NCBI GenBank assembly: GCA_964360585.1
Contig: CAYHXC010000007.1
Location: forward strand, 3,867 to 67,866
Source of the DNA: an uncultured Candidatus Saccharibacteria bacterium
GTDB taxonomy: Bacteria; Patescibacteriota; Minisyncoccia; UBA6257; 2-01-FULL-56-20
Reading direction: 5' to 3'
Length of the DNA stretch: 64,000 nucleotides
Positions 2,118 through 56,040 of this stretch are shown in pieces (within the stretch, counting starts at the first letter, position 1; each line of letters opens with the position of its first letter). A program made the translations under genes and the position numbers. Under the pieces are notes generated by a model. It saw only the letters and a list, made by a program, of their open reading frames with translations. It was not told where the DNA came from and ran no database searches.

Positions 2118-2285
2118 CTAGAACCCATCTCAAAAATAGAATCACGCAGTCTTCCGGCTAGATTCGGCTATAAACCCACCCGACCCTCCTTGAAATACCA
2201 TAGGGTATTCCTGTCTCGGGTCGGATGGTTCTCGCTCGAATCTATCACGGAATACCCCTGTGCCTATTTTTGAGATGGGTTCTAG
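2118..2285. mobile_element. MITE copy 1 (about 166 bp, terminal inverted repeats AGAACCCATCTCAAAAATA / TATTTTTGAGATGGGTTCT, flanked by CTAG)
   Basis: near-identical copies at 22884-23051, 28486-28653 and 55873-56040; perfect terminal inverted repeats (TIRs). Confidence 0.8.
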
Positions 2286-2304
2286 TTATTTGGAGGATAG
2301 AAAT

Positions 2305-3006
2305 ATGCCGAAACAAGTCCTGCCGGATATCGTTGGTTTTGGGTGGCTCACGGAGTATCTGAAGAGGCATGGATTTCACCAGCTCTCAGCTTCCGAGGCC
2401 TATCAACGAGTGGCTCCGTATTTGCCGAACTCTCCGAAGTACTGGCCTCACCGAAATCGATTTGAACAACGTCATCGCGAGGGGAGAGAAGCCGGGTTTA
2501 TCTTTTCGCAGAATGGTTATGATGCTGTCGTTTGGACAACCTGGCTGGTTCGTGAGGGTAGGCCGCGAGAAAGCGACACTGGTTGGGTGGTTATTTCGGA
2601 AGGACGAAAAGCCCTCTACTTTGCCAAGCCGGCCAACCGTACAAAGCACTTTCTTCGTACACTGGCCATGCGGGCGGCAGTAGCGAAGCAAAGAGTGGCG
2701 AAGCGTCCTCACTGTGAGTTGTGCAACACGCTCATGAGAATAGTGCGAGGCCCCGAGCTCCGAGAGCGTTATTGGCGCTGTGATCTGAAACATCGGCATA
2801 CAACGCGAAAGTACACTTCGCGGCCGTGGGACGTTGGTCTCACCCCCGAAATGCGCGAGTTTGTTGAAAAGACTCGCCGAGAAGAACAGCGGTACGAAAA
2901 AAGACTGTTAGCTCAAGGGAAACGGCCACACACAGCTATGCTGAAGCGCAAGCGGTGGGAAGATCGAGTGGCAGCAAAAAAGAAACGAGCGCTACAACCG
3001 AGATAA
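2305..3006 (+). CDS. hypothetical Arg/Lys-rich protein with C-x2-C ... C-x-x-x-x-H cysteines; higher GC than its neighbours
   Basis: ORF-track frame begins inside the MITE; first ATG after the element is at 2305; strongly basic, possibly nucleic-acid-binding. Confidence 0.4.
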   Translation: MPKQVLPDIVGFGWLTEYLKRHGFHQLSASEAYQRVAPYLPNSPKYWPHRNRFEQRHREGREAGFIFSQNGYDAVVWTTWLVREGRPRESDTGWVVISEGRKALYFAKPANRTKHFLRTLAMRAAVAKQRVAKRPHCELCNTLMRIVRGPELRERYWRCDLKHRHTTRKYTSRPWDVGLTPEMREFVEKTRREEQRYEKRLLAQGKRPHTAMLKRKRWEDRVAAKKKRALQPR

Positions 3007-3026
3007 TATCTCGGTTTTTCATTTTC

Positions 3027-3626
3027 TTACTTACAGTTTAGGGCACTTCGGCACTGGGCCTTGGCCGTCGGATCGTTCGTTGCCTGATCACAGAGGGCGC
3101 ACTGGGCTTCAAGCGAGACGCTCCCAGAAACCTGGCCGCTTACAGTGGGCGGTGGGGTCATCTGCTCCACTATTGCCTCATTTTCGATAAAGGTGACATT
3201 TTGCGGAAGAGTAATGAGTGTGGCGTCCTCGACCCAAGGATTACAGGAGTAGTTAAATTTTTGATCGAAATCAACCCCTCCCATCATACCCACTGTCGAC
3301 ATCTTGAATCCTTGGTTTGTGGTGTCCGACCAGATATAGGCCGACGCGCCGTCCACTAACGTATGGATCTGTTCGGCCTGGCCATTCGTCAACTCAACAA
3401 AGTTCATGAGTATCTTCCCTCCTGAAACATAGATCTCGCCCGAGGCGCTCGTGCCGGTCACGTCTTCCCCAAAGGTACATTTCTGCGAAGTTTGCGAGTC
3501 GAGAAGATCTTTAAGCGATGTTCCTCCGCCGGAGAAAAGACTTGAGCCGGATTGGGTCAATAAAAAATATGCACCACCGCCCAAGACTGCTACGACAATA
3601 ATGCCGATAATGATTTTTTTATTCAT
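3027..3626 (-). CDS. hypothetical secreted/membrane-anchored protein
   Basis: N-terminal transmembrane/signal segment, Gly/Ser-rich linker, C-terminal cysteines. Confidence 0.45.
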   Translation of the reverse strand: MNKKIIIGIIVVAVLGGGAYFLLTQSGSSLFSGGGTSLKDLLDSQTSQKCTFGEDVTGTSASGEIYVSGGKILMNFVELTNGQAEQIHTLVDGASAYIWSDTTNQGFKMSTVGMMGGVDFDQKFNYSCNPWVEDATLITLPQNVTFIENEAIVEQMTPPPTVSGQVSGSVSLEAQCALCDQATNDPTAKAQCRSALNCK

Positions 3627-3659
3627 GGAGTTAAGTATATAGTGGCCGCTGTTTCCGGT

Positions 3660-5691: not shown

Positions 5692-5703
5692 AAACAATTG
5701 GAG

Positions 5704-6695: not shown

Positions 6696-7250
6696 TTAGG
6701 CAGATCCCTGGGCGATGAGGCTGATGACAAGGATTCCTAGCGTATTAAAGACCAGAGAGGTAGGGAGAAAAATAGCGTAGTTTACGGCGGAAAGGCCGAG
6801 GAGCGTGATGCCCAACTCATCAGGCAAAGGTGAGGCTATAATAAGTGCTCCTAAAAAAGGTACAAACCGATGAAAGAGTCTCGTTCGGAACAGTGCTGGC
6901 AAGCGAACGCGCGGGGCGTGACTTCTTAGATAGGCAATATCATCAGTTACTCGGTCGCGAATGAAGCCGAAAAGTATTGCATCGCCGATCATTGCTCCCA
7001 GGCCACCGATGAGACTAACCGCGAGCGGGGATTGCTGTCTCGCAAGTTCTCCAAGAAGGGCAATGGCCGGAGCGGTTGTAAAAACCGACGTAAAAAGCAT
7101 GCCGGCGAAAAAGTCTCCAAAATAACGCCACTCGTTAATCTGGCCGGTCAGTTTTATGGTGAAGCCGGACCATTCCATAAAAAAAGCCAGTCCGATGGAA
7201 AGTGCGATCAGGAAAACGTCTTCGATGAGGTGTTTTCTTTCCCGTGCCAT
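6696..7250 (-). CDS. hypothetical integral membrane protein
   Basis: multiple hydrophobic helices. Confidence 0.45.
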   Translation of the reverse strand: MARERKHLIEDVFLIALSIGLAFFMEWSGFTIKLTGQINEWRYFGDFFAGMLFTSVFTTAPAIALLGELARQQSPLAVSLIGGLGAMIGDAILFGFIRDRVTDDIAYLRSHAPRVRLPALFRTRLFHRFVPFLGALIIASPLPDELGITLLGLSAVNYAIFLPTSLVFNTLGILVISLIAQGSA

Positions 7251-14387: not shown

Positions 14388-17300
14388 GTGACTATCCACT
14401 TTTCTCCTTCAGTACGGAAACGTTTCAATAATCTTAGGTTGCTTGTTCGTAGTTCCTGGAGTGTTATACGGCATCCGTTAAGCGATTGGCCATTACGGAC
14501 AAACAACTCTTTTTTTGATCGACAGACCGTTGCCATCAGCACCTTCCTCTGGGGTGGTGTTTTTATTATCCTCAACTTTCTTTTTGCCCAACGAGTTTCT
14601 ATTTTTTGGTTCAATCACTGGCCGGTCAAGATTCTGTCGAGTGTCATCTACGGATTTCTTATCTGGTATGGCGGAGCGTTGTTTTTCTTTTTAGTCGCTA
14701 AGCTATTTCGAAAAGAAACGACTCTGGCGCGTCTCGAGATGTTAGTTTTCCCGCTCTGGCTCACCTGGGCCCTAATGCCTTTTTTCGATCTTCCCCATCT
14801 TCTTTTCAGTATTCCGATGGTTTATATCTGGGGCGCTGGGGCGCATCTCTCCTGGTTACTCGGATTTCCAATGCTGGCATTCCTTTCGTTTTCCTTGATG
14901 CGATATGAGTTTCACTTGTCCAAGAGAGAAATGGGGGTTGCCATGCTTCTGGCTGGAGCAGTTCCCGTGATTGGCCGTTTCGTCATTGAGAAGAGTCCGT
15001 TTTGGTTTGATGCGTTTGTTCTCAGTCTAACGGGAAAGGGGATGGGGTTCCACAGCGCTTCGTTACTAGCGGTTCTTGTAGCCCTCCCGCTTGCTTTCCT
15101 CTTGCGCCACCTAACCCAACCTGGGCGTTCGTGGACAACTCTTTTTTCGCCGATAATTTTTTTGGTTCTGGTGGTTCCACTTTTTGTGATTACGGCCCAA
15201 CAAACTTCCTGGACAATGTTTATTCCCGGAGGAAAAATATTTAATTTTTCTCGTCAGATTGAAGGAGATTTTGGCCCGGGGGAGTCTCGGTATCGGCATT
15301 CCTATGTTTGGACGGGAGGGGATTATGAAACTTCGACAATTACGCATGGGGGAGCTGGCATTGTCACGGCATATTACAGTGATTATTACGTTGATGTGGC
15401 GGACCTCGATTTTAACCCTACTTTAGCGGATATTCGCGAGATTAGAATTCTGGTTGATTTCACCGGGAACACCAACCTAGGATCAACAAACAAAATACAG
15501 GGTTGTTTTGCGGCAGACACCGCGAATGCCAGTGGAACTTTTTACTGCAGTGACTGGCAGAATAGTCAAAATAGCACCTCAACATTTACTTTCCGCATTC
15601 GCTCTGACAGTATTTTTACCTTCGCCACAAGTTCTGATGGCGCCGCTACTTCAACTGCCGCCTGGAACACGTTGATCAGCGCTCTGACCCAGGATGATAA
15701 TGATGTCGCGGTGCACGCGTACGTTACCGGATCAGATGACGGTAATAATTCTAATGATGGAAAAGTGGAATTTACCAATGTCAATGTTGAAGTTGAATAC
15801 AAGGACTATAACGAACTTATCACCGAGTACACGTACTCGACCAGTACCCAATCAACAACCTCAACAACCGCCATCCCCATACTGACCCTGCCGTCATCGT
15901 CTTTGCCGAACGGCACTTACTTTGTTACTTGGGGAATGCAGGCCAGCGCTGATGCTACTTCGCTCGCGATTCCGACGGTGAGTTTGCGTCAAGAGACGGG
16001 AACGATCATTGCCACTGAAAGCATGAACCTTAATACGGTCACTTCCACGGACCCAACGAAAGGAAGTTTTTTTGGAGGATTTTGGGCTGGAACGCTGGAT
16101 GGCGCCTCCTCTCTTTCTCTGTATGGGAACAGTCTTTTTGGAACTGTTGGCATATATTTCGGAACACGGTATATAAGCGCGACGCGTCTCGATACCCGCC
16201 TCACGGCCAATCAAGATTACTGGTCGAATAGCAATAACAGCACCGCCGACGTACTCACTGACGCGACAACGACATTTACCGTTGTTACCTCGACGACCGC
16301 GACCTTTCATACGGAAGCAACGGCACAACCCTTTCTCCTCTTTGCTTCTATGACCGTGAACCCCGATCAGACTGCTCGTTATTGCTCAGCTCAAGTAAAA
16401 GTGAGTTCAACGGCGAGCGTTGCCACATACGGTGTGGCCTATCGTAGGGGAGTATCGGGCAGTGATGTTTGGCCCTATACGTTCGCCACACAGCTCAATC
16501 TGGCCTCTGGATCCGTCACTGTTTCCCTGGAAGGGAAAACCAATGCGGCGGCGGCGGCCTGCGACTACGCCCAGCCTCGTATTTTTATTGTTCGCGCCAG
16601 TCTTTTCGACACTATCGGGAATAGTAGCGCAACCGCCGCAGTCACGATTAACACCTCCTCACTGACTACCCTGACGACCACCAGTTTTGTTCCCCAGGAA
16701 CAAGGTGACGCGCTCATCGTCGGCAACTCACTTTTTAGTCCAACCTCATCCCGAGCCATGGTTCTTACTACCAACGTGTCAGGCACATCGAATATTTTTT
16801 TGGACAATCTGGGTCTTTTAGGAACAGCCGTTACCAGTACCTGGCCGGTTACCACGGTTTATGTGTATCGTAATATCAGTTCAACGGTTAACTTTGCTTT
16901 GAGCGCGCACGGTGTTGGTACGGCGAGTACCACATTCGCCAGTAGCTCCTATCTGACCGTCTGGTCTCTGCAACCGCCCATCTCGTATACCCAGTCCGGT
17001 TACCGTTGGTATGCGAATAGCGATGCAACTTCAACCGGAGCCGCCCTGGCCGCCACCAATACCGCGGCATTTGCTCCCGTTCAAGGGACCCCTTTTCGAT
17101 TACGGTCTCTCCTCCACATTGGGAGTTCGACGCTCTCTTCCAGTTCACAGCCGTTTAAACTGCAGTATGCTGAAAAATCAGGGACGTGCGATACTGCATT
17201 TTCTGGAGAAACCTATGGCGACGTCGGGCGGACAAGCGGCGCTATCCGTTTTTATAACAACGCTTCAGTCAGTGATGGGGTAAGAATTGCCACCTCTTCG

Positions 17301-19205
17301 GGTGATCCGGTCCATGGCAGTGATACGGTCGTGGCCCAAAGTTATGAGGAAGCAAACTCGTTTGTGGCGGTCACGAGCACGGCAAGTAGTAGTGACGCCA
17401 TGTGGGATTTTTCGTTGGTTGATAACTCTGCGGTAGCCAGTACGACCTACTGTTTCCGAGCGGTCCAGATTGGCGATGTGGCTCTCGACGCCTACAGTGT
17501 TATTCCCGAGATTACCACGAAGGGAGCTGCTCCAGCTTTGGGGAGTGTGACCTTAAACAATGGTTCTGATATTTCACTCACGCCAGCTACCACAACTCGC
17601 ATTTACGCCTCATCGAGCGTCGTATCTGATGCTGACGGAGCGGGGGATATCCTCTACGCCACCTCAACGTTCTACCGCTCAGGGGTAACGGGCGGGCAGG
17701 ATTGCGTGGCTAATGATTTAAACTGTTATCAAACAGCGAGTTCGAGTTGTAGTTTTGCCGCCAGCACCTCCACGGTATCTTGCTATACGGATATCTGGTA
17801 CTTTGCGCAAGCTACCGATGCCTCGTCTAGTTTTAGCGCGGAAAGTTGGCAGGCGGCAATTTCCGTGACTGATAAACAAGCAGTTTCTACGAGAGTCAGC
17901 TCGACGGTCGGAACGGTACAGATTATCTCTCTTATAGCCATCGGATCAGCAACCTCATCCCTAAATTACGGAACTCAATTTGCGGGACAAAATACCGGCA
18001 GTACCAATCAGTTAGCTAACATTATCAACTACGGAAATACCTCCTCGACACTTAAGGTCTCTGGCACAAACTTAACCAGCGGAGGAAATACAATTGACGT
18101 GAGTAATCTACACTATGCTTCATCAGGATTTACGTATGGAGGAGTAGAACAATCTTTAAGTACGATTGCCACTACGCTCACCGGTGTCACCATTCTCCGC
18201 CCACCGATGTCGCCACTTTGGTCAACCAGTACACTTCCTTATGAAATCATCCAGCATAATCTTTCAGAATATAATAACTTTTTATATCAAACTGGCGGTT
18301 TGGACGTATCTTTAGCAAACACCTCAAATGTATCTTTTGCCCCATTGAGTCCCACCGGGACCATAGGCACGTGGGCCACCACCACGAATTTATCAGAAGG
18401 AAGACGTTTGCATGCCGGAGGCACCTACGGGGGGTACCTTTATGTGGCTGGCGGATTGCTGGACGGGAATGTTCTTACGAGTTCGGTCAAATTTGCCCAA
18501 ATCAACAGCACGGGGAGTATTGGGAGTTGGCTAACTGCTACCGCGCTTCCCACGAGTACCTATCAGGCCGGCAACGTTATTTCTAATGGCTATTTGTATC
18601 TGGTAGGGGGAAAAACTGGAGAAAGTGACGCCACCAGTACCGTTCGGTATGTTTCCATTAATAGTACCGGTAGTGTAAATACTTGGGACACTACGACGGC
18701 CCTACCAGGTCCTCTTGCAAGTCAGTACGGAGTAGTTGCTTATCAAGGATATATCTATCATGTCGGCGGCGTAAATAATAGCGGCAATACCTCTAGTGTG
18801 TTTTATGCGCCTTTGAACAGTAATGGCACGATCGGTTCTTGGAATTCCGGTACGTCACTCCCGGGCAGTTTTGCTTCTCCCGCGTTGGCTGCTTCCGGAG
18901 GATTTCTTTTTGTGGCAGTGGGAAGTATAACCTCCACCTTTGTCTACGCCCCGCTTTACTCAAACGGTTCTTTGGGTTCTTGGTCCCTCGGCACCTCTTT
19001 GCCATCGAGTACCGCGACGGTGCCGGCGCTTGCTTGGAACGGAAATGTATATATTACTGGTAATAACAATGTTATTCCTCAAAAGGATGTATTTTGGATT
19101 CCCACAAACAATCGGAATACCTACTGGGGACTGAATGTGCCAACCGGTAACGTCTCGGGAACGTATAGCGGTACCGTTACCTTTACGGCGGCCTATACTC
19201 CCTAG
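14388..19205 (+). CDS. giant (1605 aa) membrane-anchored Ser/Thr-rich surface protein with C-terminal Kelch-like beta-propeller
   Basis: N-terminal multi-transmembrane region, huge Ser/Thr-rich middle section, repeated YLYVAGG / YLYLVGG / YIYHVGG blades. Confidence 0.6.
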   Translation: MTIHFSPSVRKRFNNLRLLVRSSWSVIRHPLSDWPLRTNNSFFDRQTVAISTFLWGGVFIILNFLFAQRVSIFWFNHWPVKILSSVIYGFLIWYGGALFFFLVAKLFRKETTLARLEMLVFPLWLTWALMPFFDLPHLLFSIPMVYIWGAGAHLSWLLGFPMLAFLSFSLMRYEFHLSKREMGVAMLLAGAVPVIGRFVIEKSPFWFDAFVLSLTGKGMGFHSASLLAVLVALPLAFLLRHLTQPGRSWTTLFSPIIFLVLVVPLFVITAQQTSWTMFIPGGKIFNFSRQIEGDFGPGESRYRHSYVWTGGDYETSTITHGGAGIVTAYYSDYYVDVADLDFNPTLADIREIRILVDFTGNTNLGSTNKIQGCFAADTANASGTFYCSDWQNSQNSTSTFTFRIRSDSIFTFATSSDGAATSTAAWNTLISALTQDDNDVAVHAYVTGSDDGNNSNDGKVEFTNVNVEVEYKDYNELITEYTYSTSTQSTTSTTAIPILTLPSSSLPNGTYFVTWGMQASADATSLAIPTVSLRQETGTIIATESMNLNTVTSTDPTKGSFFGGFWAGTLDGASSLSLYGNSLFGTVGIYFGTRYISATRLDTRLTANQDYWSNSNNSTADVLTDATTTFTVVTSTTATFHTEATAQPFLLFASMTVNPDQTARYCSAQVKVSSTASVATYGVAYRRGVSGSDVWPYTFATQLNLASGSVTVSLEGKTNAAAAACDYAQPRIFIVRASLFDTIGNSSATAAVTINTSSLTTLTTTSFVPQEQGDALIVGNSLFSPTSSRAMVLTTNVSGTSNIFLDNLGLLGTAVTSTWPVTTVYVYRNISSTVNFALSAHGVGTASTTFASSSYLTVWSLQPPISYTQSGYRWYANSDATSTGAALAATNTAAFAPVQGTPFRLRSLLHIGSSTLSSSSQPFKLQYAEKSGTCDTAFSGETYGDVGRTSGAIRFYNNASVSDGVRIATSSGDPVHGSDTVVAQSYEEANSFVAVTSTASSSDAMWDFSLVDNSAVASTTYCFRAVQIGDVALDAYSVIPEITTKGAAPALGSVTLNNGSDISLTPATTTRIYASSSVVSDADGAGDILYATSTFYRSGVTGGQDCVANDLNCYQTASSSCSFAASTSTVSCYTDIWYFAQATDASSSFSAESWQAAISVTDKQAVSTRVSSTVGTVQIISLIAIGSATSSLNYGTQFAGQNTGSTNQLANIINYGNTSSTLKVSGTNLTSGGNTIDVSNLHYASSGFTYGGVEQSLSTIATTLTGVTILRPPMSPLWSTSTLPYEIIQHNLSEYNNFLYQTGGLDVSLANTSNVSFAPLSPTGTIGTWATTTNLSEGRRLHAGGTYGGYLYVAGGLLDGNVLTSSVKFAQINSTGSIGSWLTATALPTSTYQAGNVISNGYLYLVGGKTGESDATSTVRYVSINSTGSVNTWDTTTALPGPLASQYGVVAYQGYIYHVGGVNNSGNTSSVFYAPLNSNGTIGSWNSGTSLPGSFASPALAASGGFLFVAVGSITSTFVYAPLYSNGSLGSWSLGTSLPSSTATVPALAWNGNVYITGNNNVIPQKDVFWIPTNNRNTYWGLNVPTGNVSGTYSGTVTFTAAYTP

Positions 19206-21921: not shown

Positions 21922-22872
21922 ATGCACACGCATACCATCCAAAAGCTAAGTCTTTTTTTACCGGCTTCGATATTTTTTTTAGGAGTCTTTCTCATCGCCC
22001 GAACCGTTTTTGGAGCTGGATCAACTCAAGACCTTTCAAGTCTCGTAACCATTGGGAACTCTGCCCCAACGGTTTCGGCAGTCACCATTAATAGCGGTAA
22101 CGATATCGTCCTTACTCCCAACGCTACAACGACGGTGTATGTTAACTTTACGGTTCAGGATGCAAATGGTTGTAATGACGTTTTTTTAAATGGCACGGTA
22201 ACGTCAACTATTTTCCGAACTGGAGTCGGATCTGCTTGCTCGGCGAGCGACCGGAACTGTTACATTGTGAGTACATCGACTAATAGCTGTAGCGGAAACG
22301 CTTCTACCTCGCTTGCGACCACAACTTTCTACGTGTATTATTTTGCCGACTCCACGACCAACACGACGACTGCCAGCTCTAGCTTCCCTTCGGACCACTG
22401 GACTGGTTTTGCCTGGGCTAAGGATGCCTCTCTGGCCAGTTCTTCCGCGACTTCGACCGCCACCGTGGAGATGAGCGTACTCACTGCCTTGAATGTAACG
22501 ACTTCCTCCATTAACTATGGAACATTGTCAGCCGGTCAAGATACGGGAGCTACGAACCAATTCGCCACAACAACAAATGCCGGTAACTCGACCACTACGC
22601 TTCGACTGCATGCAGTAGCAACACTAACTGCGGGAGCTAATTCCATTACAACGAGTTCACAAGCATTTTCAACGTCTAGTTTCACGTATGCGGGCACAAG
22701 CACTGCCTTGACTGCCTCGGCTGTAACGGTCAGTGGTTTTCTCTTGACCATTCCGACCACCACAACGAACGTATCCCGAGCAACGTACTGGGGCTTAACA
22801 GTGCCTTTCGGGCAAGCCACTGGGAGCTACTCCGGCACGACTCGTTTCACGGCATTATATCAGGAGAATTAG
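21922..22872 (+). CDS. secreted Ser/Thr-rich protein, paralog of an internal segment of the giant protein
   Basis: shared segments (SINYGTLSAGQDTGATNQ vs SLNYGTQFAGQNTGSTNQ) and a shared C-terminus (ATYWGLTVPFGQATGSYSGTTRFTALY vs NTYWGLNVPTGNVSGTYSGTVTFTAAY). Confidence 0.55.
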   Translation: MHTHTIQKLSLFLPASIFFLGVFLIARTVFGAGSTQDLSSLVTIGNSAPTVSAVTINSGNDIVLTPNATTTVYVNFTVQDANGCNDVFLNGTVTSTIFRTGVGSACSASDRNCYIVSTSTNSCSGNASTSLATTTFYVYYFADSTTNTTTASSSFPSDHWTGFAWAKDASLASSSATSTATVEMSVLTALNVTTSSINYGTLSAGQDTGATNQFATTTNAGNSTTTLRLHAVATLTAGANSITTSSQAFSTSSFTYAGTSTALTASAVTVSGFLLTIPTTTTNVSRATYWGLTVPFGQATGSYSGTTRFTALYQEN

Positions 22873-22883
22873 CAGTGTATTGC

Positions 22884-23051
22884 CTAGAACCCATCTCAAA
22901 AATAGAATCACGCAGTCTTCCGGCTAGATTCGGCTATAAACCCACCCGACCCTCCTTGAAATACCATAGGGTATTCCTGTCTCGGGTCGGATGGTTCTCG
23001 CTCGAATCTATCACGGAATACCCCTGTGCCTATTTTTGAGATGGGTTCTAG
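22884..23051. mobile_element. MITE copy 2
   Basis: near-identical to 2118-2285. Confidence 0.8.
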
Positions 23052-23090
23052 GAAGAGTCGCTAAAAAATGCTATAATTTTCCCCAGAGTT

Positions 23091-24026
23091 ATGGACAGCT
23101 TTTATGATTTTTTGAAGAAAAGGGGCAAGATTCACACTGCTCTTTTTTCTTTCTTGGTGTGCGGCGCTTTACTTGTCCCCCAGGTTAGTTTTGGCGCGTT
23201 TGGAGCCTCGCCGCCGGTCTTAAACGCTACGCGATTGGTTCCTGGAATAAAATACCAACAGATTATTTATCTCGCGCGCGATAATGCCGAGAATGATTTG
23301 GTCATATCCGCCGACTTGGACGTTCCAGACACTATTAAGGAGTGGGTGCGTATTGAGCAGGGTAGTCAGTTCATTATCCCTCGCGATGTGCGGCAGTTCC
23401 CGATAACCGTCTTGATTGATGTCCCGAGTAGCGCCGGGCTCGGTATTTATAACGGCCGAGTAACTTTTTCCAGCGTTCCGAATAAAGAAGGCCAACAGGT
23501 GGCTATCTCTTTGGGCATAGAAATTCCTTTGAATCTCACGGTGGGTGATAATATCTCTCGAGAAGTTAAAGTCCGCTTGATTAAGTTGCTCGATATCGAA
23601 GAAGGTTGGGACCCCCGGGTATACGTTAAATTTGAGAATCTGGGGAATATCTCTGAAAAGTTCGATTCAGCAAACTATGAGCTTCTCGATAATTATGGCA
23701 ATGTTCGCCTTGCTTTTGCTCAAAAAACCGAAGACTTCCCAGAAACCCCGGCATTTTCTACCAACGAATATACAATTGACTTCCCCATGGATTTCCATTT
23801 GGGTGTAGGCCAGTATTGGGCAGTGGTTAATTTTTATCAGGAAGGTAAGGTGATCGGCAGTCAAAAAACTATTTTTAATGTTTTGAAGAGGGGATCGCTA
23901 TCCAGTCCGGCCGGACAGCTGTGGCAAGTATTGCGGCTTCAGGAGTTCTGGATGTTCTATCTCGGAGGGCTCGTTCTTATCATTCTCTACTTTTTACGCC
24001 GGAGGTTTTTTAGAAAATCTGTTTAA
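23091..24026 (+). CDS. hypothetical secreted protein with C-terminal transmembrane anchor
   Basis: signal peptide, C-terminal hydrophobic helix plus basic tail. Confidence 0.45.
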   Translation: MDSFYDFLKKRGKIHTALFSFLVCGALLVPQVSFGAFGASPPVLNATRLVPGIKYQQIIYLARDNAENDLVISADLDVPDTIKEWVRIEQGSQFIIPRDVRQFPITVLIDVPSSAGLGIYNGRVTFSSVPNKEGQQVAISLGIEIPLNLTVGDNISREVKVRLIKLLDIEEGWDPRVYVKFENLGNISEKFDSANYELLDNYGNVRLAFAQKTEDFPETPAFSTNEYTIDFPMDFHLGVGQYWAVVNFYQEGKVIGSQKTIFNVLKRGSLSSPAGQLWQVLRLQEFWMFYLGGLVLIILYFLRRRFFRKSV

Positions 24027-24029
24027 TGC

Positions 24030-25226: not shown

Positions 25227-25228
25227 TC

Positions 25229-30319: not shown

Positions 30320-30392
30320 CTCGGCTTCAGTGTACCCGAAATGGGCGGGTTAGTAAAATTTGTGAGGATGGCCAATTTCGAGTAGAATAACC

Positions 30393-30667
30393 AGAACCCA
30401 TCTCAAAAGTGCCACGGCGACGCGTTTCCAGATGTTTTTCCATTCCGCTAGGCACGGACTCCGAAGATGTACCCATAGGTACTTCAAGGAGGTCGGAACA
30501 ACGCGGAATGGAAAAACAGCGGAAACCCGAAGGGATATGAGCCAATTTTCACAATCTTATTTGTCGCTGCGGACTCGACGTACCAAAGGGTACGCCTTCG
30601 TCCTTACTCCTTAATCTTGTGAAAGTTGGCTCATATCGCGGCTCGCGGCACTTTTGAGATGGGTTCT
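30393..30667. mobile_element. second MITE family member (about 275 bp) with the same terminal repeats (AGAACCCATCTCAAAAGTGCC.../...GGCACTTTTGAGATGGGTTCT) but a different internal sequence rich in nested palindromes
   Basis: 22-nt perfect terminal inverted repeats shared with the 166-bp element; internal 15-bp perfect inverted repeat GTTTTTCCATTCCGC / GCGGAATGGAAAAAC. Confidence 0.65.
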
Positions 30668-30673
30668 ACTGTC

Positions 30674-39390: not shown

Positions 39391-39438
39391 TCCCCTACTT
39401 TAGCATGAAAATAAGGCCTAAAAAAGGCATTCCGGCCC

Positions 39439-39494
39439 AGAACTCGTCTCGAAAATGTATCCTGTCGCGATAGCTATTTTTGAGATGAGTTCTC
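39439..39494. repeat. mini element: 56-bp palindrome made of the MITE-type termini only (AGAACTCGTCTCGAAAAT...TATTTTTGAGATGAGTTCT); overlaps the murG stop codon
   Basis: inverted repeat related to the MITE TIRs; the murG stop (TGA, minus strand, 39493-39495) sits at the element end. Confidence 0.5.
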
Positions 39495-40719
39495 AATACC
39501 CGGCAATTTTCATGATCTCCTGCGCGATAATTTGGGCGGCATTCGGAATGTAAAATGAAGCGGATGTCTTTGACATTGTCTCAAGCGTGGCCGCATTTCC
39601 CAAGATGTCCTTAATTTGGTTCATGAAAATGCCGGGCATGAGATTTGTTTGTTCAATGATAATTCCGCCGCCGGACTTGGCGAACTCAAAGGCGTTCAAG
39701 CGTTGATGATCCCGGGCTGATCCGGGAAGCGGAATCACGATCGCTGGTTTTTTAAACGCCGCAATCTCAAAAAGCGAACTGCTGCCGGCGCGACTGATCA
39801 CGAGATCGGCGGCGGTCAAGGCGTTCCGCATATCTTCTGTCTTGAGGAATGCAACAGGATGGTATCGTTTTGGGAGCGCGTCCTTGGTCGAGATCTCAAT
39901 CATGGCCGCGCGCGAAAGTTTTTGCACTTCGGCAAAGTTAGCCGTTCCGGTCTGGTGGATAATCTGGGCAATCTTCGTCATCTCTTCGAGATTGGTCATC
40001 AAAAATTCGTTCAGGGGTTGGGCGCCCTGTGATCCGCCCATCACAAAGATGACCGGTTCTTCGGGATCAAATCCTAAAACATCCTTCGCCGTTTTCTGGG
40101 AAAGTTGATCGGTAAAGAGACCGGGATTGAGGGGGGCGCCAGTCAGGGCCGTTTTTTTCCGGGGGAAGTAGTTTTTTGCCCGATCAAAACTAATTGCAAT
40201 CCGCCGCGCGAAACGTCCGGCGATGGCATTGCTCACTCCCGGAATGGCGTCCGATTCGTGGATCACGATTGGAATGCGGTATAGCCAACCGACGAGCACA
40301 ACCGGCAGTGAACCGGTGCCGCCCTTCGAAAAAATGACGTCGGGCATAAAAAAAAGAAGTTTTACGAGTGCTTGGAACAAACTTACGAAAAAAAACGGAA
40401 TGTCTAAGATATTCCGGACGAATCCATGTCGCCGCCACTTGGCGCCCAGCAAGGAATCAATCTCGATATTTGCCGCCCTTAGAATTTCCACGTACTCGCT
40501 CTCTGGTCCGAGGTAGCGAAGGGTGAGGGAAATTCCCGCCTTGGGTGCGCTCAGGCGGAGCGCTTCAGCCACGGCGAGAAGCGGATTGATATGTCCACCA
40601 CTGCCGCCGCCGGCCAGGACGACGCGCAGTGTCCGTTCCGGACTTTTTCTTTCCGGAGCGACTGACTGCGCTCCGGTTTTCCCATCGACCACTTCTTCGT
40701 AATTGACGTCCTTGAACAT
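39493..40719 (-). CDS. murG: UDP-N-acetylglucosamine--N-acetylmuramyl-(pentapeptide) pyrophosphoryl-undecaprenol N-acetylglucosamine transferase
   Basis: LAGGGSGGHINPLLAVAEAL glycine-rich motif and GT28 C-terminal domain. Confidence 0.85.
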   Translation of the reverse strand: MFKDVNYEEVVDGKTGAQSVAPERKSPERTLRVVLAGGGSGGHINPLLAVAEALRLSAPKAGISLTLRYLGPESEYVEILRAANIEIDSLLGAKWRRHGFVRNILDIPFFFVSLFQALVKLLFFMPDVIFSKGGTGSLPVVLVGWLYRIPIVIHESDAIPGVSNAIAGRFARRIAISFDRAKNYFPRKKTALTGAPLNPGLFTDQLSQKTAKDVLGFDPEEPVIFVMGGSQGAQPLNEFLMTNLEEMTKIAQIIHQTGTANFAEVQKLSRAAMIEISTKDALPKRYHPVAFLKTEDMRNALTAADLVISRAGSSSLFEIAAFKKPAIVIPLPGSARDHQRLNAFEFAKSGGGIIIEQTNLMPGIFMNQIKDILGNAATLETMSKTSASFYIPNAAQIIAQEIMKIAGY

Positions 40720-50366: not shown

Positions 50367-50367
50367 A

Positions 50368-50441: not shown

Positions 50442-51750
50442 TTACCCTATTTTTTCGCGGAGGAAGTTTTTGAGCTCACTCATGGCGATCCGCTCCTGTG
50501 CTCCAGTGTCGCGGAAACGAACAGTTACGTCGTTTTTTTCAAGCGAATCGAAATCTACAGTGATGCAAAACGGTGTCCCAATCTCGTCTTGGGCATAGTA
50601 CCGCTTTCCAATGTTTCCCCGGTCATCCCAAGCCACCATAAACTCTTTTCGCAAATCATCGTAAATCGCGCGGGCTTTCTCTGTCAGTTCTGGCTTATTG
50701 GCGAGAAGGGGAAAGATAGCGGCCTTATACGGAGCAATTCGTGGCGGCAGTTTTAGGAAAACTCGCTCCCCTTCTTCGATATAGCTCGAAAGCAAAACAG
50801 CCAAGATCGTGCGGTCGACGCCCCAGGTTGGCTCGATGACGTGGGGCAAAAACTCCTCATTTGTTTCTGGATCGCGGTATTTCAGATTCTCGCCGGAAGC
50901 CTGCTCGTGATTCTTGAGATCAAAATCACCGCGATATGCCAGACCGTAGAGCTCTTTCTGGCCAAAGGGATAGTCGAACTCAAAGTCTACCGTTCGCTTC
51001 GAGTAGTGGGCTCGATCGCCGTCAGGAATTTCGACATCATGCACTTTCGATTCATCAATGCCCACCGCGCGCATCCACTCGTGCATTAATTCCTGCCAAA
51101 CCTCGAAATGTTCCTGCCACTCCCCTTCTCGCACAAAATACTCGATTTCCATTTGCTCGAACTCACGAGTGCGGAAAATAAAATTCCCGGGTGTGATCTC
51201 ATTCCGAAAAGCTTTTCCGATTTGGGCTACACCAAACGGAAGTCGCTTTCGGGTCGTCTCTCGAATATTTTTAAACTGCACAAACATGGCCTGGGCCGTT
51301 TCTGGACGAAGATACACGATATTTGCCTCCTCCTCGGCTGGACCAAGAAAGGTCTTGAGCATCATGTTAAACTGCTGGGCCTTGGTGAACTGATCTTTTG
51401 CTCCGCAGTTCTCACAGGGTTCGTCTACGCTGATCTGATCGGCGCGGAATCGGGTGTGACATTTTTTGCATTCGATAAGCGGATCAGAAAACTCCTTCAA
51501 GTGTCCGCTCGCTTCCCAGACTTTCGGATTCATAATAAGTGCGGCATCCAATCCAACCATATCGTCCCGTTCTTGAACAAACATCTTCCACCACAGATTC
51601 TTGATATTGTTTTTTAACTGCGCGCCCAGCGGGCCGTAGTCCCAACTATTCGCCAGTCCGCCATAAATTTCCGAGCCAGGAAAAATAAAGCCGCGCCGTT
51701 TCGCGAGGCTCACGATTTTTTCCATCAAGTTTTGTTCGTTTTCGGCCATG
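50442..51750 (-). CDS. glyQS: glycyl-tRNA synthetase (dimeric class II)
   Basis: MAENEQNLMEKIVSLAKRRGFIFPGSEIYGG N-terminus; class II motifs; start set at the Met before MAENEQ rather than the longer ORF-track start. Confidence 0.85.
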
Positions 51751-51915
51751 GTTAGAGTATATTGAGAAACCCTCTTCCGTTGCAACATGTCGAGATTTTT
51801 GAGCGAAAAGCGTTCGGCCCGAAGAAGGAATACCCAGAGGTATTTCGAGGAGAGACGGAGGCTTTGCAGCCGAAAATATCGGCATGCTTGTAGAATACGG
51901 AGTTTCTCAACATGC

Positions 51916-53709
51916 TCAAGGCTGAACTGTGCGATCAACATTACCGAGACTTTGATCGTCTGGCAAGCTCGAAAGAATCGCTCCGGCGGTTACCGAATAG
52001 GCTCGGCCAATAAAATCATCATTGGCCCGAAGGATGGTTGGGCGAAGAAGGGTCATATCGTGGTCGACATAGGCGCTGGACGGTGTGGATTCAATTTGAA
52101 AAACTGCCTCGATCGGCGCGCCTAAAACACCCTGGTTGGCGGCAAGTTTATCAATCTTCCAGGAGATTTGGCCGCTGGCCGAGTTATAGATCGGCGTGCT
52201 CGAGATGTTGGCTGTCGGTTTTCCGATTAACTGGCTGTAAGGCTCGAGGAAGGAAGATATTTCTATCCGACTCACGTCGGCGGCGTAGTTCTGGAGGGTC
52301 CAACGAATGGTGTACCGGCTCGACGCATTCACCTTCGGCGGATAGGGACCGCCCTCGTGGTATCCCCTGGCTCGCAAGCCAATCTCGCCGGCCACCTTTG
52401 TTTCTGATTTTGTCTGCACAAATGTCTTCTGGCGCGAAACGCTGGGAATTGGCGTCGGCGACTCGGCTGAGCCATTTACTTTGAGAACATAATTTTTATC
52501 ACTCTGACGCGCGATCGGAAAACTATTTTTTACAAAAATACTAAAACCAATCGTCTGCGACTCCCCCGGCGGCAAACGAAGCAAACTGGGAATAGTGCCC
52601 GAGTTCCAGGTCACGGTGTTATTGATCGCATTTAAAACTCCGGAAGTCTGGAGCGTGCTCATATTAAAAAGTTCGCCGAGCAAGGTGGCTTTTAAAACGA
52701 CATTCTCAAGCGGTACCTCGGTGTTGTTCTTAATGCTCACCAGATAATCAATCTTCTCTCCCAGGCGAGCCGCGTCATTATTACTCGGCCGAATAGTGAG
52801 CGAGAGCGGCGGCGCGGCAATACTCAAGCTGGCAGATTTAGTCGTCAGAATATATTCACTTGCCCCTTCCCGCCGCGTTAAACGCGCCACCAGATTTACA
52901 AAATCACTTTCCTGACCAATCAGATTTCCGGTTATGGTCACTGTGCGAACCTCCCCGCTCTCCAGGACGCCAATCGGCCAACTCGAAGTGGCCGTCGTCG
53001 ATGACTCGCTTGTTCCGCTCAGTATAAAATTCTTGGGAAAGGCGAGGGAAAGAGTAAGATTACCGATCATTTCGCTCGTCCGGTTGTTAATCGTGATTTT
53101 TGTTTCAAAATTACCGCCGCTTAAAATAGTTTCCGGCGTCGAAAGATCAAGCGTGACGGCAGGCTGGCCGATCAAAACATCGGTTGTTTCGTTTCGTTCA
53201 AACTGGGCGCTCGAACCGCTTTGAACGTAGGTGAACTTCGCTTGAATCCGACCCACCTTCTCCGTTCCTGATGCGGCCACAATCTGCACTTCACTACTCG
53301 CAAATGACAACCGGTCGATCGTGCCAATCGATTCCTCATACACGCGCGCGCTTGGCTTTCGTTCCGTAAAGGCCATCTCCGGCGGCAAATAGATAGAGAG
53401 CGTACCGTTTTTGAGAACCTCGGTATTCGTATTTTCAATTTTCACCTTCAGAGAAAACGGCTGTCCCACGGGAACTTCGCTCGGTGCCATCAGCACCACG
53501 GACGCGCTTTGCGCCGGTTCGCTAATCAACTGCATCAAAAGAAATATACCGAGACCGATCACGAGAATGGCGCCGAGACCGATGCCGATAGGCAAAAGCG
53601 GCAAAGACACGTGTGTTTTTTTCATGACGCCGAAGTTTGGCGCAAGTTCCGGTTTTTTTGGCGCGCGTTCATCCTCCTTCCAAGGAGATTTAAAAAAAGG
53701 TTCTGGCAT
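51916..53709 (-). CDS. hypothetical large membrane-anchored protein with repeated beta-sandwich (DUF11/CARDB-like) segments
   Basis: basic N-terminus, single transmembrane helix, repetitive Thr/Ser-rich extracellular region. Confidence 0.45.
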   Translation of the reverse strand: MPEPFFKSPWKEDERAPKKPELAPNFGVMKKTHVSLPLLPIGIGLGAILVIGLGIFLLMQLISEPAQSASVVLMAPSEVPVGQPFSLKVKIENTNTEVLKNGTLSIYLPPEMAFTERKPSARVYEESIGTIDRLSFASSEVQIVAASGTEKVGRIQAKFTYVQSGSSAQFERNETTDVLIGQPAVTLDLSTPETILSGGNFETKITINNRTSEMIGNLTLSLAFPKNFILSGTSESSTTATSSWPIGVLESGEVRTVTITGNLIGQESDFVNLVARLTRREGASEYILTTKSASLSIAAPPLSLTIRPSNNDAARLGEKIDYLVSIKNNTEVPLENVVLKATLLGELFNMSTLQTSGVLNAINNTVTWNSGTIPSLLRLPPGESQTIGFSIFVKNSFPIARQSDKNYVLKVNGSAESPTPIPSVSRQKTFVQTKSETKVAGEIGLRARGYHEGGPYPPKVNASSRYTIRWTLQNYAADVSRIEISSFLEPYSQLIGKPTANISSTPIYNSASGQISWKIDKLAANQGVLGAPIEAVFQIESTPSSAYVDHDMTLLRPTILRANDDFIGRAYSVTAGAILSSLPDDQSLGNVDRTVQP

Positions 53710-54204
53710 TTATTCCACAACAATCATTGTATCCTTTTCCTTTCCGAAGGCATAGCATCGATCGCAGAAAAAATGTTGATTCATGAGATCAAAATATCGC
53801 GGCAAAGCCGCCTCGCAACTATCACAACGCGCTTCTTCTGGATCCCAACCGAGAAGACGGAGAATGATTCGCCAGGATGGCTCGTTCGCCACCACTCGCC
53901 AGAGTTCGGGATCGGCTTCATGGTCGGAAAGAAGACGGGCGAGATGGGAAAAATTGACGAGCTCCCACACAACCTTTCGCTCTTTCAAGGCATCGACGAT
54001 CGAAAGATCATTTTTTTCGATCAACCGAATGGTAGTGATGTTTCCCGGCTCGAGATGCGGTGAAAGTTTTGAGAGAATTTTTCGAGAGCTGACGGTGCGA
54101 GCCGCCATCTTGCCGACCTGACGGCTGAAAAAAGTAATCCGCTCATCCCATTCGCCGCGCGGTTCCCGTTTTAAAATAACTGCTGACGTAATGAATTCGC
54201 GCAT
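53710..54204 (-). CDS. recO: DNA repair protein RecO-like (short form)
   Basis: N-terminal OB-fold-like segment; C-terminal CDSC...CDRC zinc-finger pairs. Confidence 0.5.
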   Translation of the reverse strand: MREFITSAVILKREPRGEWDERITFFSRQVGKMAARTVSSRKILSKLSPHLEPGNITTIRLIEKNDLSIVDALKERKVVWELVNFSHLARLLSDHEADPELWRVVANEPSWRIILRLLGWDPEEARCDSCEAALPRYFDLMNQHFFCDRCYAFGKEKDTMIVVE

Positions 54205-55539
54205 CTATGTTTTTGCCGCCCGGATTCTTTTTAGCTCGTCGCGGACCACTTCGCGATCATCCCACAAAGAAAATGAACCGTTCGGTCCGACAATCGCCTG
54301 TTCGCATCCTTTTCCGGTTATGAGAACCAGTCCGCCCGACTCGGCCAAGGTCAAAGCTTTATGAATAGCTTCCCGCCGATCTTTAATCACAAAAAGATCC
54401 CGACCGTCTTTTTTTCCGCCTTCAAGAACGCCTACTTCAACTTGATTGATAATCTCCTCGGGATCTTCGTCGTAGGGATCTTCGTTGGTGACGATAACGT
54501 AATCGGCAAACTCGGCCGCCATTTTTCCTAAAACCGGCCGCCTGGCTTTATCGCGACCGCCGCCCGTTCCCCCTAAGACCTGGATAATTTTTTTATACTG
54601 CAGTGGCCGGAGTGTGGCATATAAATTGCCCATAGCTCCTGGTTCAAAAGCATAATCAACAACAATATCCCAGGGCTGACCTTCGTTTATATACTCTAGG
54701 CGGCCTGGCACAGGCGGCAGGTTTCGAACGGCGCCCTGGAGCGCTTCCCAGGAAATGCCGAGCGCTCGAGCAATGGTGAGGGCGGCCACGACATTTCGGA
54801 CGTTGTGTTCACCGCGGAGCGGTGATTCGAAAGCATGCCCATCGAGCGTGAACTTCATACCCCTGGGAGTAGTCTCTAGGTTTTGAGCGTGCAAGAGCGT
54901 TACGGCCGGCAGATTTTTGTCATGAAGCGTGAAGGCATACTTTTCCTCAACTGAAAAATCAAGAAAGTCATGGGCGTGTTCGTCATCAGCATTTACCACA
55001 ATCCGGCGCGGAATTTCCCGCTCGCCCAGTTTTTTCTTCTTTCCCGCCGCCAGATGGTCAAATAGTTTTAACTTGGCCTTTTTATAGTTCTCGAAACCGC
55101 CATGAGCTTCAATATGTTCGGGGTAAAGGTTGGTGCAAAGCAGGAGATCGTAATGAATCCCCCGGTGGCGAGACTGGTCGATTCCCTGCGAGGTGGTTTC
55201 GATAATCGCGTACTGACAGTTAGCCTTAACCATCCGGCGCAAAAACTGTTGGGTTTTAAAACGGCCGAGCATGGTCATCTTCCGATCGTTCATCTTCGAC
55301 CACTCGCCAATCTTGAAGGCAATGGTACTTAATGAACCAACCGCACTGCCGACTCCCTCAAGGAGACTATGAAGAATGAAAACGGTCGTGGATTTTCCCG
55401 AGGTGCCTGTAACGCCAATCACCGTCAGTTTTTCCGACGGAAAGCCGTACCACAGCGCGCCCAGCTCGGCTAAACTGCGGTGGTAGAGCGCGAGGACAAA
55501 GGGCGGCGTAATCTTCAAAATTGCGGTTTTAAGTGACAT
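54205..55539 (-). CDS. Mur ligase family protein (MurE/MurF-like)
   Basis: VIGVTGTSGKSTT P-loop; central and C-terminal Mur ligase domains. Confidence 0.65.
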   Translation of the reverse strand: MSLKTAILKITPPFVLALYHRSLAELGALWYGFPSEKLTVIGVTGTSGKSTTVFILHSLLEGVGSAVGSLSTIAFKIGEWSKMNDRKMTMLGRFKTQQFLRRMVKANCQYAIIETTSQGIDQSRHRGIHYDLLLCTNLYPEHIEAHGGFENYKKAKLKLFDHLAAGKKKKLGEREIPRRIVVNADDEHAHDFLDFSVEEKYAFTLHDKNLPAVTLLHAQNLETTPRGMKFTLDGHAFESPLRGEHNVRNVVAALTIARALGISWEALQGAVRNLPPVPGRLEYINEGQPWDIVVDYAFEPGAMGNLYATLRPLQYKKIIQVLGGTGGGRDKARRPVLGKMAAEFADYVIVTNEDPYDEDPEEIINQVEVGVLEGGKKDGRDLFVIKDRREAIHKALTLAESGGLVLITGKGCEQAIVGPNGSFSLWDDREVVRDELKRIRAAKT

Positions 55540-55823
55540 AGCGGCGATGCTACCAATAATACGCTGATGGCGGCACTTTTTCCACAGTTAACACAGATTT
55601 TTCCCCACCTTGTCCACCTTTTGCGCTTGACTTTTTAGATAGAGGTGGAAAAATAAGATTAGGTTTGAGAGCATACAAGAGTTCCGTTTGATAATCTATC
55701 CAATTCGGAACCCACACATTGTTATAGTCTGATGACTATAACTGAGGGTCCCACCTAATTGATTTTCGGAATACTCCCCGCATCTCAAACCAAATAGAAA
55801 ATATGATCCCCTCTCACCGCTGA

Positions 55824-55848
55824 AGCCCCTCTCCTCGGGGGGTTTTAG
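55824..55848 (+). terminator. orphan terminator-like hairpin (CCCC-TCTCCTC-GGGG then TTTT) with no annotated plus-strand gene upstream
   Basis: read directly; could mark the 3' end of a small RNA in the 55540-55850 gap. Confidence 0.3.
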
Positions 55849-55872
55849 CTTTCTAGGGTGTCCTTTCTTTTC

Positions 55873-56040
55873 TTAGAACCCATCTCAAAAATAGAATCAC
55901 GCAGTCTTCCGGCTAGATTCGGCTATAAACCCACCCGACCCTCCTTGAAATACCATAGGGTATTCCTGTCTCGGGTCGGATGGTTCTCGCTCGAATCTAT
56001 CACGGAATACCCCTGTGCCTATTTTTAAGATGGGTTCTAG
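55873..56040. mobile_element. MITE copy 4; its terminal CTAG supplies the stop codon of the downstream minus-strand ORF
   Basis: near-identical to copy 1; the stop (TAG, minus strand) at 56037-56039 lies inside the element. Confidence 0.8.

Follow-up and report, generated by a model that had tools for sequence, protein, structure and literature searches.

Small non-coding MITEs in a groundwater Patescibacteria genome share their ends with IS5-family, IS427-group-like insertion sequences

The 64-kb stretch of DNA analysed here (the window) carries six related repeats, which raises the question of what they are and which transposase could move them. We found all six where the original prediction had placed them, and its description of them as MITE-like, non-coding and multi-copy, with terminal inverted repeats (TIRs) and TA flanks, was borne out. 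The elements are small non-coding MITEs in a groundwater Patescibacteria genome; it is their host that is unusual, not the kind of element. Very probably, they use the ends of IS5-family, IS427-group-like insertion sequences (ISs), with a transposase supplied in trans and insertion at TA.

Four copies are of one type (166-type), each consisting of a 162-bp element with TA on both sides. Copy 1 lies on the plus strand at 2119-2284 (TA at 2119-2120, GAACCC...GGGTTC at 2121-2282 and TA at 2283-2284), and its neighbours are a divergent 6-phosphogluconolactonase-like gene (1311-2057, minus strand) and an ORF from the ATG at 2305. Copy 2 (22885-23050, plus strand) has its TA flanks inside CTAG and sits between plus-strand ORFs at 21922-22872 and 23091-24026; its junction recurs in an independent assembly (L132). 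Copy 3 (28487-28652, plus strand) lies between convergent genes, one of which is fmt on the minus strand, and copy 4 (55874-56039, plus strand) lies at the end of a minus-strand ORF (56037-56480). The copies had been called near-identical, and from CTAG to CTAG all four differ by a single G/A SNP in the right TIR, where copies 3 and 4 have A. With CTAG counted in, the TIRs of copies 1 and 2 are perfect over 22 bp.

The two remaining elements are of other types. The 275-type element (30392-30668, plus strand) has def-side ORFs on one side and an S41 peptidase gene on the other; the element proper is 273 bp (30394-30666) and its flanks are CA...TA. A single TIR pair encloses two interior hairpin modules in opposite orientation, at 30431-30519 (minus strand) and 30539-30633 (plus strand), the strands being those of the match to the interior model described below. 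The mini element (39438-39494, plus strand) is 53 bp proper (39440-39492), with flanks CA...TC and TIRs that have diverged by 3 and 1 mismatches. Since it shares ATCCTGTCGCGATA with a third subfamily, type C (on contig L128, from 8564 onwards), the mini element is probably a deletion derivative of type C.

Besides these six, the window holds a decayed, TIR-less relic of the 166-type interior at 51793-51889 (minus strand; nhmmer E = 4.9e-9), a seventh copy that was absent from the original list. It occupies the spacer that separates a DUF11 gene from a gene for a class-II aminoacyl-tRNA synthetase and is ~73% identical by eye over ~100 nt, with an alignment score of 79 vs 23 ± 3.7 for shuffles and a covariance-model E of 0.17.

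How far do the ends unite the six elements? The TIR core AGAACCCATCTCAAAA has 13 matches in the window at ≤3 mismatches, compared to 0.9 ± 0.9 in shuffled sequence (0 of 100 shuffles reach 13), and the two ends of each of the six elements account for 12 of the 13. The longer element had been predicted to share 22-nt TIRs with the others; the sharing is real, but 16 bp are common to them, and the 275-type element has its own perfect TIR of 21 bp. The predicted TA/CTAG flanks are present at the four 166-type copies; the 275-type and mini elements do not have TA on both sides.

We found no coding capacity of the elements' own: at 53, 162 and 273 bp, their sole long frame enters from outside, and a search of 5.8 billion predicted proteins returned nothing for the peptide of the internal ORF.

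As predicted, the family extends beyond the window. On two other contigs of the same sample (L128 and L129) there are at least three further copies, two of the 166-type and one of the 275-type. The latter (L128, 6883-7167) is 98.9% identical to that of the window and occupies an unrelated site, and one of the extra 166-type copies is nested within another MITE type, at a TA. The elements are not conserved at orthologous sites: in syntenic relatives, whose fmt is 56-59% identical, no TIR match occurs in 14-21 kb, and at the fmt, S41 peptidase and murG sites the spacer is either short or missing. These empty sites come from distant relatives of different species. The corresponding reconstructed sites in the window would read CTGCC-TA-GGCAG for copy 3 and GCC TAA for copy 4. 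The copies point to recent amplification in this Patescibacteria genome. In the same orientation, each of the two independent 275-type copies has the flanks TA...TG, which simple TA duplication does not predict; the TA flanks of the family may be a target duplication, or TA may be part of the element end.

The ends of the elements lead to candidate parents. ISs of 843-866 bp on Leptospira plasmids and in a Planctomycetota MAG are bounded by exactly the same 16-17-bp terminal repeat, TA|GAACCCATCTCAAAA. The Leptospira weilii elements (~866 bp; one full-length element lies at ~69.4-70.3 kb of plasmid NZ_CP040842) read cTA|GAACCCATCTCAAAAACC...GGTATTTTTGAGATGGGTTC|TAg, and the 843-bp Planctomycetota element has the same ends, TA flanks and a transposase 53-62% identical. 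The transposase of these full-length ISs scores 241 bits against the IS5-family model NCBIfam NF033580 (cut-off 110), and matches Pfam DUF4096 and DDE_Tnp_1; its coding sequence is split over two frames that meet at an A7G site. Members of the IS427 group are described as 832-865 bp long, with inverted repeats of 13-21 bp, a duplication of 2 bp and a frameshift between two ORFs (PMC3281130), and our placement compares the full-length ISs with the traits of the group given there (Table 2 and text). Three further full-length homologues end in TA|CAAGCCATCTCAAAA, TA|GAAGCCATCTCATAA and TA|GAACTCATCTCATAA. All seven intact full-length elements inspected that have complete ends of this type encode IS5-family transposases; an eighth (L174), with only its right end recognisable, has the same kind of transposase. 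Homologues of the transposase number more than 7,900 at E < 1e-20, from many phyla, and one Desulfosalsimonadaceae MAG (JAWOAV01) contains a full-length element and MITEs together. The window itself had been reported to lack a transposase; by tblastn, no IS427-type transposase was found in the 64-kb window, in L128 or L129, or in ~20 CPR loci carrying such elements. Hence, mobility in this genome at present is putative.

Elements with these ends are widespread. An exact 16-mer scan of one genome per species returned at least 120 loci, and about half of the matches listed are paired with an inverted copy at a distance of 120-350 bp. At least nine phyla are represented among these 120-350-bp elements, including Desulfobacterota, seven Patescibacteria/CPR lineages, Nitrospirota, Bacteroidota, Beta- and Gammaproteobacteria, Campylobacterota, Bdellovibrionota, Actinomycetota and Leptospira. 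Among 75 elements, TA is found at the left end in 60, at the right end in 59 and at both in 46; the left TA has a C before it in 35 elements, and the right TA has a G after it in 44.

The interior is a hairpin that encodes no protein. Predicted folds are far more stable than those of shuffles (z = -10.1, -13.7 and -7.4), 93% of cells are paired, and 12 of 32 pairs have changed on both sides (shuffles 6.1 ± 1.4; slid controls 1-4). This hairpin with compensatory changes is common to part of the family, window copies included, and its apical motif, CCTCRAAATAC-loop-GTATTCCTGCGG, is conserved among elements of Desulfobacterota, Patescibacteria and Campylobacterota. With an interior-only covariance model built from Desulfobacterota elements, the top six matches were the six window modules (E = 0.0015-0.0098; next 0.17), and the model had no match in six full-length IS copies. 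Hence, the MITEs are not simple deletion derivatives of these ISs. It is conceivable, although rather unlikely, that the hairpin has a function of its own, as a module that travels with IS427-type ends across phyla. If so, its structure, as DNA or RNA, could be required for the elements to be mobilised efficiently in trans, or it could be exapted, e.g. as an anti-Shine-Dalgarno or an RNase target; the near-identical copies in transposase-poor CPR genomes would then be mobilised by an outside transposase, e.g. from a host bacterium or incoming DNA.

The same hairpin invites the reading that the elements are structured RNA genes or cis-regulatory RNAs (3'-UTR stabilisers, terminators or anti-Shine-Dalgarno sponges) that only superficially look like transposons. 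Very stable folds (z = -10 to -14), covariation above both controls, the apical motif shared between phyla and its CCUCC, which resembles an anti-Shine-Dalgarno, are what such RNAs would display. However, syntenic relatives lack the elements at orthologous sites, one copy is nested in another MITE, and the ends are identical to those of transposase-encoding ISs. Orientation relative to co-directional flanking genes is also unbiased (8 sense, 6 antisense; the window copies are found in all contexts), and hence the interior pairing most likely acts as DNA; a DNA palindrome can keep its pairing without an RNA function. Moreover, the elements match no Rfam family, and terminator-like matches in them are no commoner than in shuffles, the sole one inside an element being a 5-pair stem. 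We therefore regard the RNA reading as improbable.

The remaining alternatives concern the source of the repeats. IS630 targets CTAG and duplicates TA, so the TA flanks and CTAG preference of the elements are also compatible with MITEs derived from IS630/Tc1-mariner elements, as originally proposed, with a TA duplication made by an IS630-type transposase. That attribution fails on the parents: every full-length element found with these ends encodes an IS5-family transposase (DUF4096 + DDE_Tnp_1, NF033580), and the 843-866-bp size and two-ORF frameshift layout suit the IS427 group, which makes an IS630 origin very improbable. Still harder to credit are REP/BIME-like palindromes spread by a RAYT (IS200/IS605-like) or integron attC-like sites, which would account for intergenic palindromic repeats with variable interiors and conserved ends. 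The attC R-box consensus is GTTRRRY, but the elements read GTTCTAG; they have true 16-22-bp TIRs with TA flanks; nine neighbouring genes scanned against Pfam include no RAYT or integrase; and these same ends are carried by a DDE transposon. With lengths of 53-273 bp, the window elements also far exceed REPs, which are 20-40 bp (PMC3733652). Finally, the DNA comes from a short-read metagenome of low coverage (~6x, per contig names), in which assembly or binning could create repeats. Nevertheless, Logan assemblies as well as three replicate ENA assemblies show the same junctions, the flanks are unique to each copy, and related elements occur in hundreds of unrelated genomes, so that the probability of an artefact is negligible.

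For MITEs with IS427-type ends, the following mechanism would apply. A DDE transposase whose two ORFs are joined by -1 frameshifting would recognise the 16-17-bp repeat GAACCCATCTCAAAA and would move or copy any DNA between two such ends, inserting it at a TA dinucleotide, by preference in CTAG, and duplicating the TA. The interior of one or two long imperfect, non-coding hairpins may bring the two ends together, or its pairing may be kept by intrastrand repair. The transposase for the window copies would have to act in trans, from outside the window. Mobilisation by the IS5-family transposase is suggested by comparison of sequences, and the elements may also affect transcripts, e.g. in the terminator or RNA-stabiliser role that was originally proposed.

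This mechanism would also explain the stop codons at element boundaries. The original prediction placed three minus-strand stops inside element ends. This is the case for fmt, whose TAG (28650-28652, minus strand) is formed by the last C of copy 3 and the right TA, and for the 56037 ORF, whose TAG (56037-56039, minus strand) is formed by the last C of copy 4 and TA. The murG stop, TGA at 39493-39495, overlaps the mini element as originally drawn but only abuts its core, being the base after the last C of the element and two more flank bases. Of the 75 elements, 21 adjoin an open frame of at least 80 codons that ends in the boundary TAG. With G as its first base and C as its last, an element that inserts into the TA of TAA or TAG would restore TAG on either strand; hence, gene ends would tolerate insertion, which would account for the overlaps. 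The fmt reading frame requires one TA to be present before insertion.

Among known systems, the closest are the ISs themselves. Our full-length relatives match the IS427-group ISs IS1248, ISPpa2 and ISPaes1 of Paracoccus in size, two ORFs with a frameshift, inverted repeats of 13-21 bp and 2-bp duplication (PMC3281130), and the unnamed Leptospira weilii plasmid IS has the same GAACCCATCTCAAAA ends and TA flanks as the window elements. In contrast to IS427-group ISs, the window elements are 53-273 bp without a transposase, and their interior is not a shortened IS. REP/BIME sequences are likewise intergenic, palindromic, multi-copy and often at gene 3' ends; however, REPs are 20-40 bp with GTAG or CGTC heads, RAYT-linked and without long TIRs or TA duplication (PMC3733652), and neither the sizes nor the termini of the window elements are of this kind.

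Correia elements (CREE) of Neisseria (~107-155 bp) resemble the present family in their TIRs, TA termini, conserved core and long stem-loop transcripts (predicted here), and in having size variants by internal segment, gene-adjacent intergenic positions and no known host transposase (PMC2229807, PMC2649163). They differ in being confined to one genus; promoters, an IHF site and RNase III processing are demonstrated for them. Here, the parent IS family is identifiable. Like the present elements, Nezha (cyanobacteria), Chunjie (Geobacter) and MITEPye1 (Paracoccus) were assigned to a parent IS by their TIRs, and they too are small and non-coding, with stable folds and filled vs empty sites; their direct repeats may correspond to the TA flanks here. 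For Nezha, the matching IS was found only in another species (PMC3184786, PMC11578231). Those three have other parents (ISNpu3-like, IS1182 family) and longer duplications (e.g. 9 bp in Chunjie). Unlike them, the present lineage is found in many phyla, with an interior module that is common across phyla. The TIR sequences of Correia elements are presumably unrelated to those found here.

We found that all six repeat elements of the original prediction lie where it had placed them and share a 16-17-bp terminal inverted repeat (TIR; end sequence GAACCCATCTCAAAA). The four 166-type copies (2119-2284, 22885-23050, 28487-28652 and 55874-56039) each consist of TA, a 162-bp element (GAACCC...GGGTTC) and TA, and their claimed near-identity holds in a gapless alignment, where they are the same from CTAG to CTAG bar one G/A difference in the right TIR. 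The 275-type element (30394-30666) is 273 bp with flanks CA and TA, and the mini element (39440-39492) is 53 bp with flanks CA and TC. Allowing at most 3 mismatches, we counted 13 matches to the 16-nt TIR core in the window, relative to 0.9 in shuffles; 12 of them make up the two ends of each of the six elements. The predicted folds of the 166-type, 275-type and mini elements are far more stable than those of shuffles (z = -10.1, -13.7 and -7.4, respectively). Using nhmmer and local alignment, we found a seventh copy, a decayed 166-type relic that lacks TIRs (51793-51889, minus strand), in the spacer that separates a class-II aminoacyl-tRNA synthetase gene from a DUF11 gene. A long ORF called at 50442-51941 probably starts further downstream, at the ATG at 51749; hence, the first ~60 codons of the called ORF are likely relic.

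An NCBI MAG labelled 'Patescibacteria group bacterium' encodes an fmt protein identical to the window's. We found the region in three replicate assemblies from Hainich groundwater well H51 and also in Logan assemblies; hence, the repeats are not an assembly artefact. The neighbours of the elements are ordinary housekeeping genes (i.e. 6-phosphogluconolactonase-like, fmt, def, S41 peptidase, gltX, murG, Mur ligase and class-II aminoacyl-tRNA synthetase genes). Elsewhere, the window has a very large ORF (1605 aa; 14388-19205) and then several ORFs without a Pfam match (21922-28478); two ORFs read in 26089-28478 have a signal-peptide or membrane-anchored look, and in syntenic relatives the same block of large unannotated genes adjoins fmt.

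Short-query BLAST against plasmids matched the terminus in Leptospira weilii plasmids, where the overlying genes carry the annotation 'IS5 family transposase'. This L. weilii element of ~866 bp runs from GAACCCATCTCAAAAACC, preceded by cTA, to GGTATTTTTGAGATGGGTTC, followed by TAg; its two reading frames join at an A7G slippery site, and the fused transposase matches NCBIfam NF033580 (IS5 family) at 241 bits, as well as Pfam DUF4096 and DDE_Tnp_1. Using tblastn over the examined loci, we found a second full-length element (843 bp) with the same ends and TA flanks in a Planctomycetota MAG, with a 53-62% identical transposase, as well as an internally deleted copy in a Vicinamibacterales genome. 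A profile search returned >7,900 transposase homologues (E < 1e-20) from many phyla, ~60% identical to the query, and at five homologue loci inspected (Desulfobacterales, Desulfosalsimonadaceae, Desulfobacteraceae, Omnitrophica and Polyangium) we found ends of the same type (TA followed by CAAGCCATCTCAAAA, GAAGCCATCTCATAA or GAACTCATCTCATAA). The Desulfosalsimonadaceae MAG JAWOAV01 combines a full-length IS427-type element with several 144-bp MITEs that have related ends (loci L173, L060 and L075).

The TA flanks had tentatively been ascribed to an IS630/Tc1-type target duplication. We replace this assignment with IS5/IS427, since full-length elements with the same ends encode an IS5-family transposase and since their size, the length of their inverted repeats, their 2-bp duplication and their two ORFs with a frameshift are those of the IS427 group within the IS5 family, as described for functional Paracoccus elements (PMC3281130). 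The sequences thus indicate that the parents of the window elements are IS427-group IS5 elements. In the Leptospira loci L126 (2511-2513) and L127, the Planctomycetota locus L081, and loci L171 and L172, the transposase stop TGA (...L R Y F stop) lies inside the right TIR; hence, part of the TIR is under coding constraint, and the MITEs retain the same TGA. As predicted, the window has no cognate transposase (tblastn finds no homologue); tblastn also found none in the CPR loci examined, and none of the best 120 of the >7,900 homologues carries a CPR name. Should these CPR genomes truly lack a transposase, the way in which the copies spread would be a real question; otherwise, the elements are a routine addition to the MITE catalogue.

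The window elements show the published signatures of bacterial MITEs (PMC2229807, PMC3184786): they are small and non-coding, have TIRs, end in TA, form stable stem-loops and come with filled versus empty sites. The repeats in this genome are to be masked as MITEs. Nearest to them in behaviour are the Correia elements (PMC2649163), which likewise end in TA, vary in size around a conserved core and are found beside genes. The searchable literature yielded no description of this lineage, and a query with the TIR sequence returned only an unrelated primer-like match.

A metagenome scan with an interior 20-mer returned three same-site contigs (L128, L129 and L132) along with L130 and L131, which are chance matches to the 20-mer, not elements. 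L132 covers copy 2 of the window itself, which leaves L128 and L129 as the contigs that contribute further copies. Hence, the family is not confined to the window, as had been expected of a mobile repeat, and two further 166-type copies with different flanks lie on other contigs of the sample. On L128 (8564-8854), a member of a third MITE subfamily, type C, has a 166-type copy nested in it at a TA, and ATCCTGTCGCGATA is common to type C and the window mini element, which is probably a shortened version of type C. The same contig holds a second 275-type copy (6883-7167), 98.9% identical and at an unrelated site. Both independent 275-type copies (30392-30668 in the window) are flanked TA...TG in the same orientation with different outer flanks, which is not predicted by plain TA duplication. 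The right TIR of the window copy (30656-30668) holds an outward-facing ATG (GAGATGGGTTCTA) that gene callers took as the S41 peptidase start (gene 253-1515 of locus L001); the ATG at 30676 is the likelier true start. As in this example, several gene starts and stops called inside elements need care, as do spurious ORFs that run through them.

The closest relatives used for empty sites are distant (fmt 56-59% identical) and keep the gene order murG-gltX-...-S41 peptidase-def-fmt-convergent gene. We found no TIR match in 14-21 kb of these relatives; no spacer separates their fmt from the convergent gene, which it abuts or overlaps, and their spacers are short at the S41 peptidase and murG sites. 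This comparison supports the reading of the window elements as insertions.

Across 75 TIR-bounded elements of the family, TA flanks the left end in 60, the right end in 59 and both in 46, with C before the left TA in 35/75 and G after the right TA in 44/75. Hence, the preferred site is CTAG. Since the first base of the element is G and its last is C, a flanking TA is completed to TAG on either strand. The stop codons noticed at the element ends of fmt and the 56037 ORF are accounted for in this way, with the boundary TAG rebuilt from TA and the element end: at the inferred empty site of fmt (...ACT GCC TA/G GCA..., insertion at the slash) one TAG stop takes the place of another, and at that of the 56037 ORF GCC TAA becomes GCC TAG. 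The pattern extends to the family as a whole: at 21/75 elements, an open frame of 80 codons or more ends in the boundary TAG, and convergent gene pairs are the commonest context. Hence, the stop-codon overlap follows from target choice and end sequence, and such insertions are neutral for the protein; by the design of the element, insertion into a stop codon is silent.

An exact-16-mer scan of one genome per species gave at least 120 loci. Among the matches listed, roughly half have an inverted second copy 120-350 bp off, and the sources include Desulfobacterota, Nitrospirota, Bacteroidota, Beta- and Gammaproteobacteria, Campylobacterota, Bdellovibrionota, Actinomycetota, Leptospira and seven CPR lineages (Saccharibacteria, Colwell-, Kaiser-, Kerfeld-, Sung- and Liptonbacteria, and the window's own organism). 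Viral contigs had no MITE pairs, the 16-mer being there only single or within a Leptospira-type insertion sequence. Long TIR pairs in loci L019, L071 and L123 are chance half-matches around ordinary genes rather than insertion sequences. Hence, one IS427-type end sequence bounds miniature elements across many phyla, including small transposon-poor Patescibacteria genomes. This breadth, with CPR bacteria included, and a covarying interior module put the family slightly above routine.

The non-coding interiors of different lineages are mostly unalignable, and each is a long imperfect hairpin. In the 144-bp Desulfobacterota family, 93% of cells are paired, and we found both-side changes at 12 of 32 pairs, relative to 6.1 ± 1.4 in shuffles and 1-4 with slid partners; this hairpin is supported by covariation. 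A covariance model of the Desulfobacterota interiors alone, excluding the terminal repeats, was run over the window with filters off. The four 166-type interiors score best, at 21.9 bits (E = 0.0015), followed by the two halves of the 275-type element, A with E = 0.0065 (minus strand) and B with E = 0.0098 (plus strand); these six modules are the best six matches, and the seventh has E = 0.17. Opposite strands of these hairpins score ~10 bits lower, so the model picks up more than just 'any long hairpin'. The common feature is an apical hairpin with a flanking pyrimidine-rich internal loop (CCTCRAAATAC-loop-GTATTCCTGCGG). In alignment A3, columns 25/88 and 43/71 keep U-G pairs in 10-11 of 11 interior sequences, which become C-A mismatches on the opposite strand, a small hint of strand asymmetry.

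Beyond the window, an element of a Sungbacteria MAG (L089, 6502-6611) has diverged TIRs (TAGACCTACTGATTAAATA) and an interior scoring 30 bits with the Desulfobacterota model; hence, the interior module is common to variant ends. The model also matched a Hydrogenimonas element and, weakly, a Bdellovibrionota element, and had no match in several other elements from CPR and Proteobacteria. We rejected the idea that the interior is a fragment left by deletion of the insertion sequence, since the model has no match in six full-length copies. Hence, part of the family, including the window copies, has a conserved, covarying interior hairpin that the parent insertion sequences lack and that did not arise by simple deletion.

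One frame of the 166-bp element is open as far as the TGA of the right repeat, but a search of 5.8 billion predicted proteins gave no match to its peptide, and we rejected this internal ORF as a protein. Rfam gave nothing on the elements at gathering or permissive thresholds, and attC-like and REP-like readings were rejected on size and end sequence. The proposed role as terminator or stabiliser stays a guess, since promoter-like and terminator-like matches are at chance level and not above shuffles. Relative to co-directional flanking genes, we found 8 elements in sense and 6 in antisense orientation. This unbiased orientation argues against a strand-specific RNA role and favours a DNA-level explanation or neutral maintenance of the palindrome.
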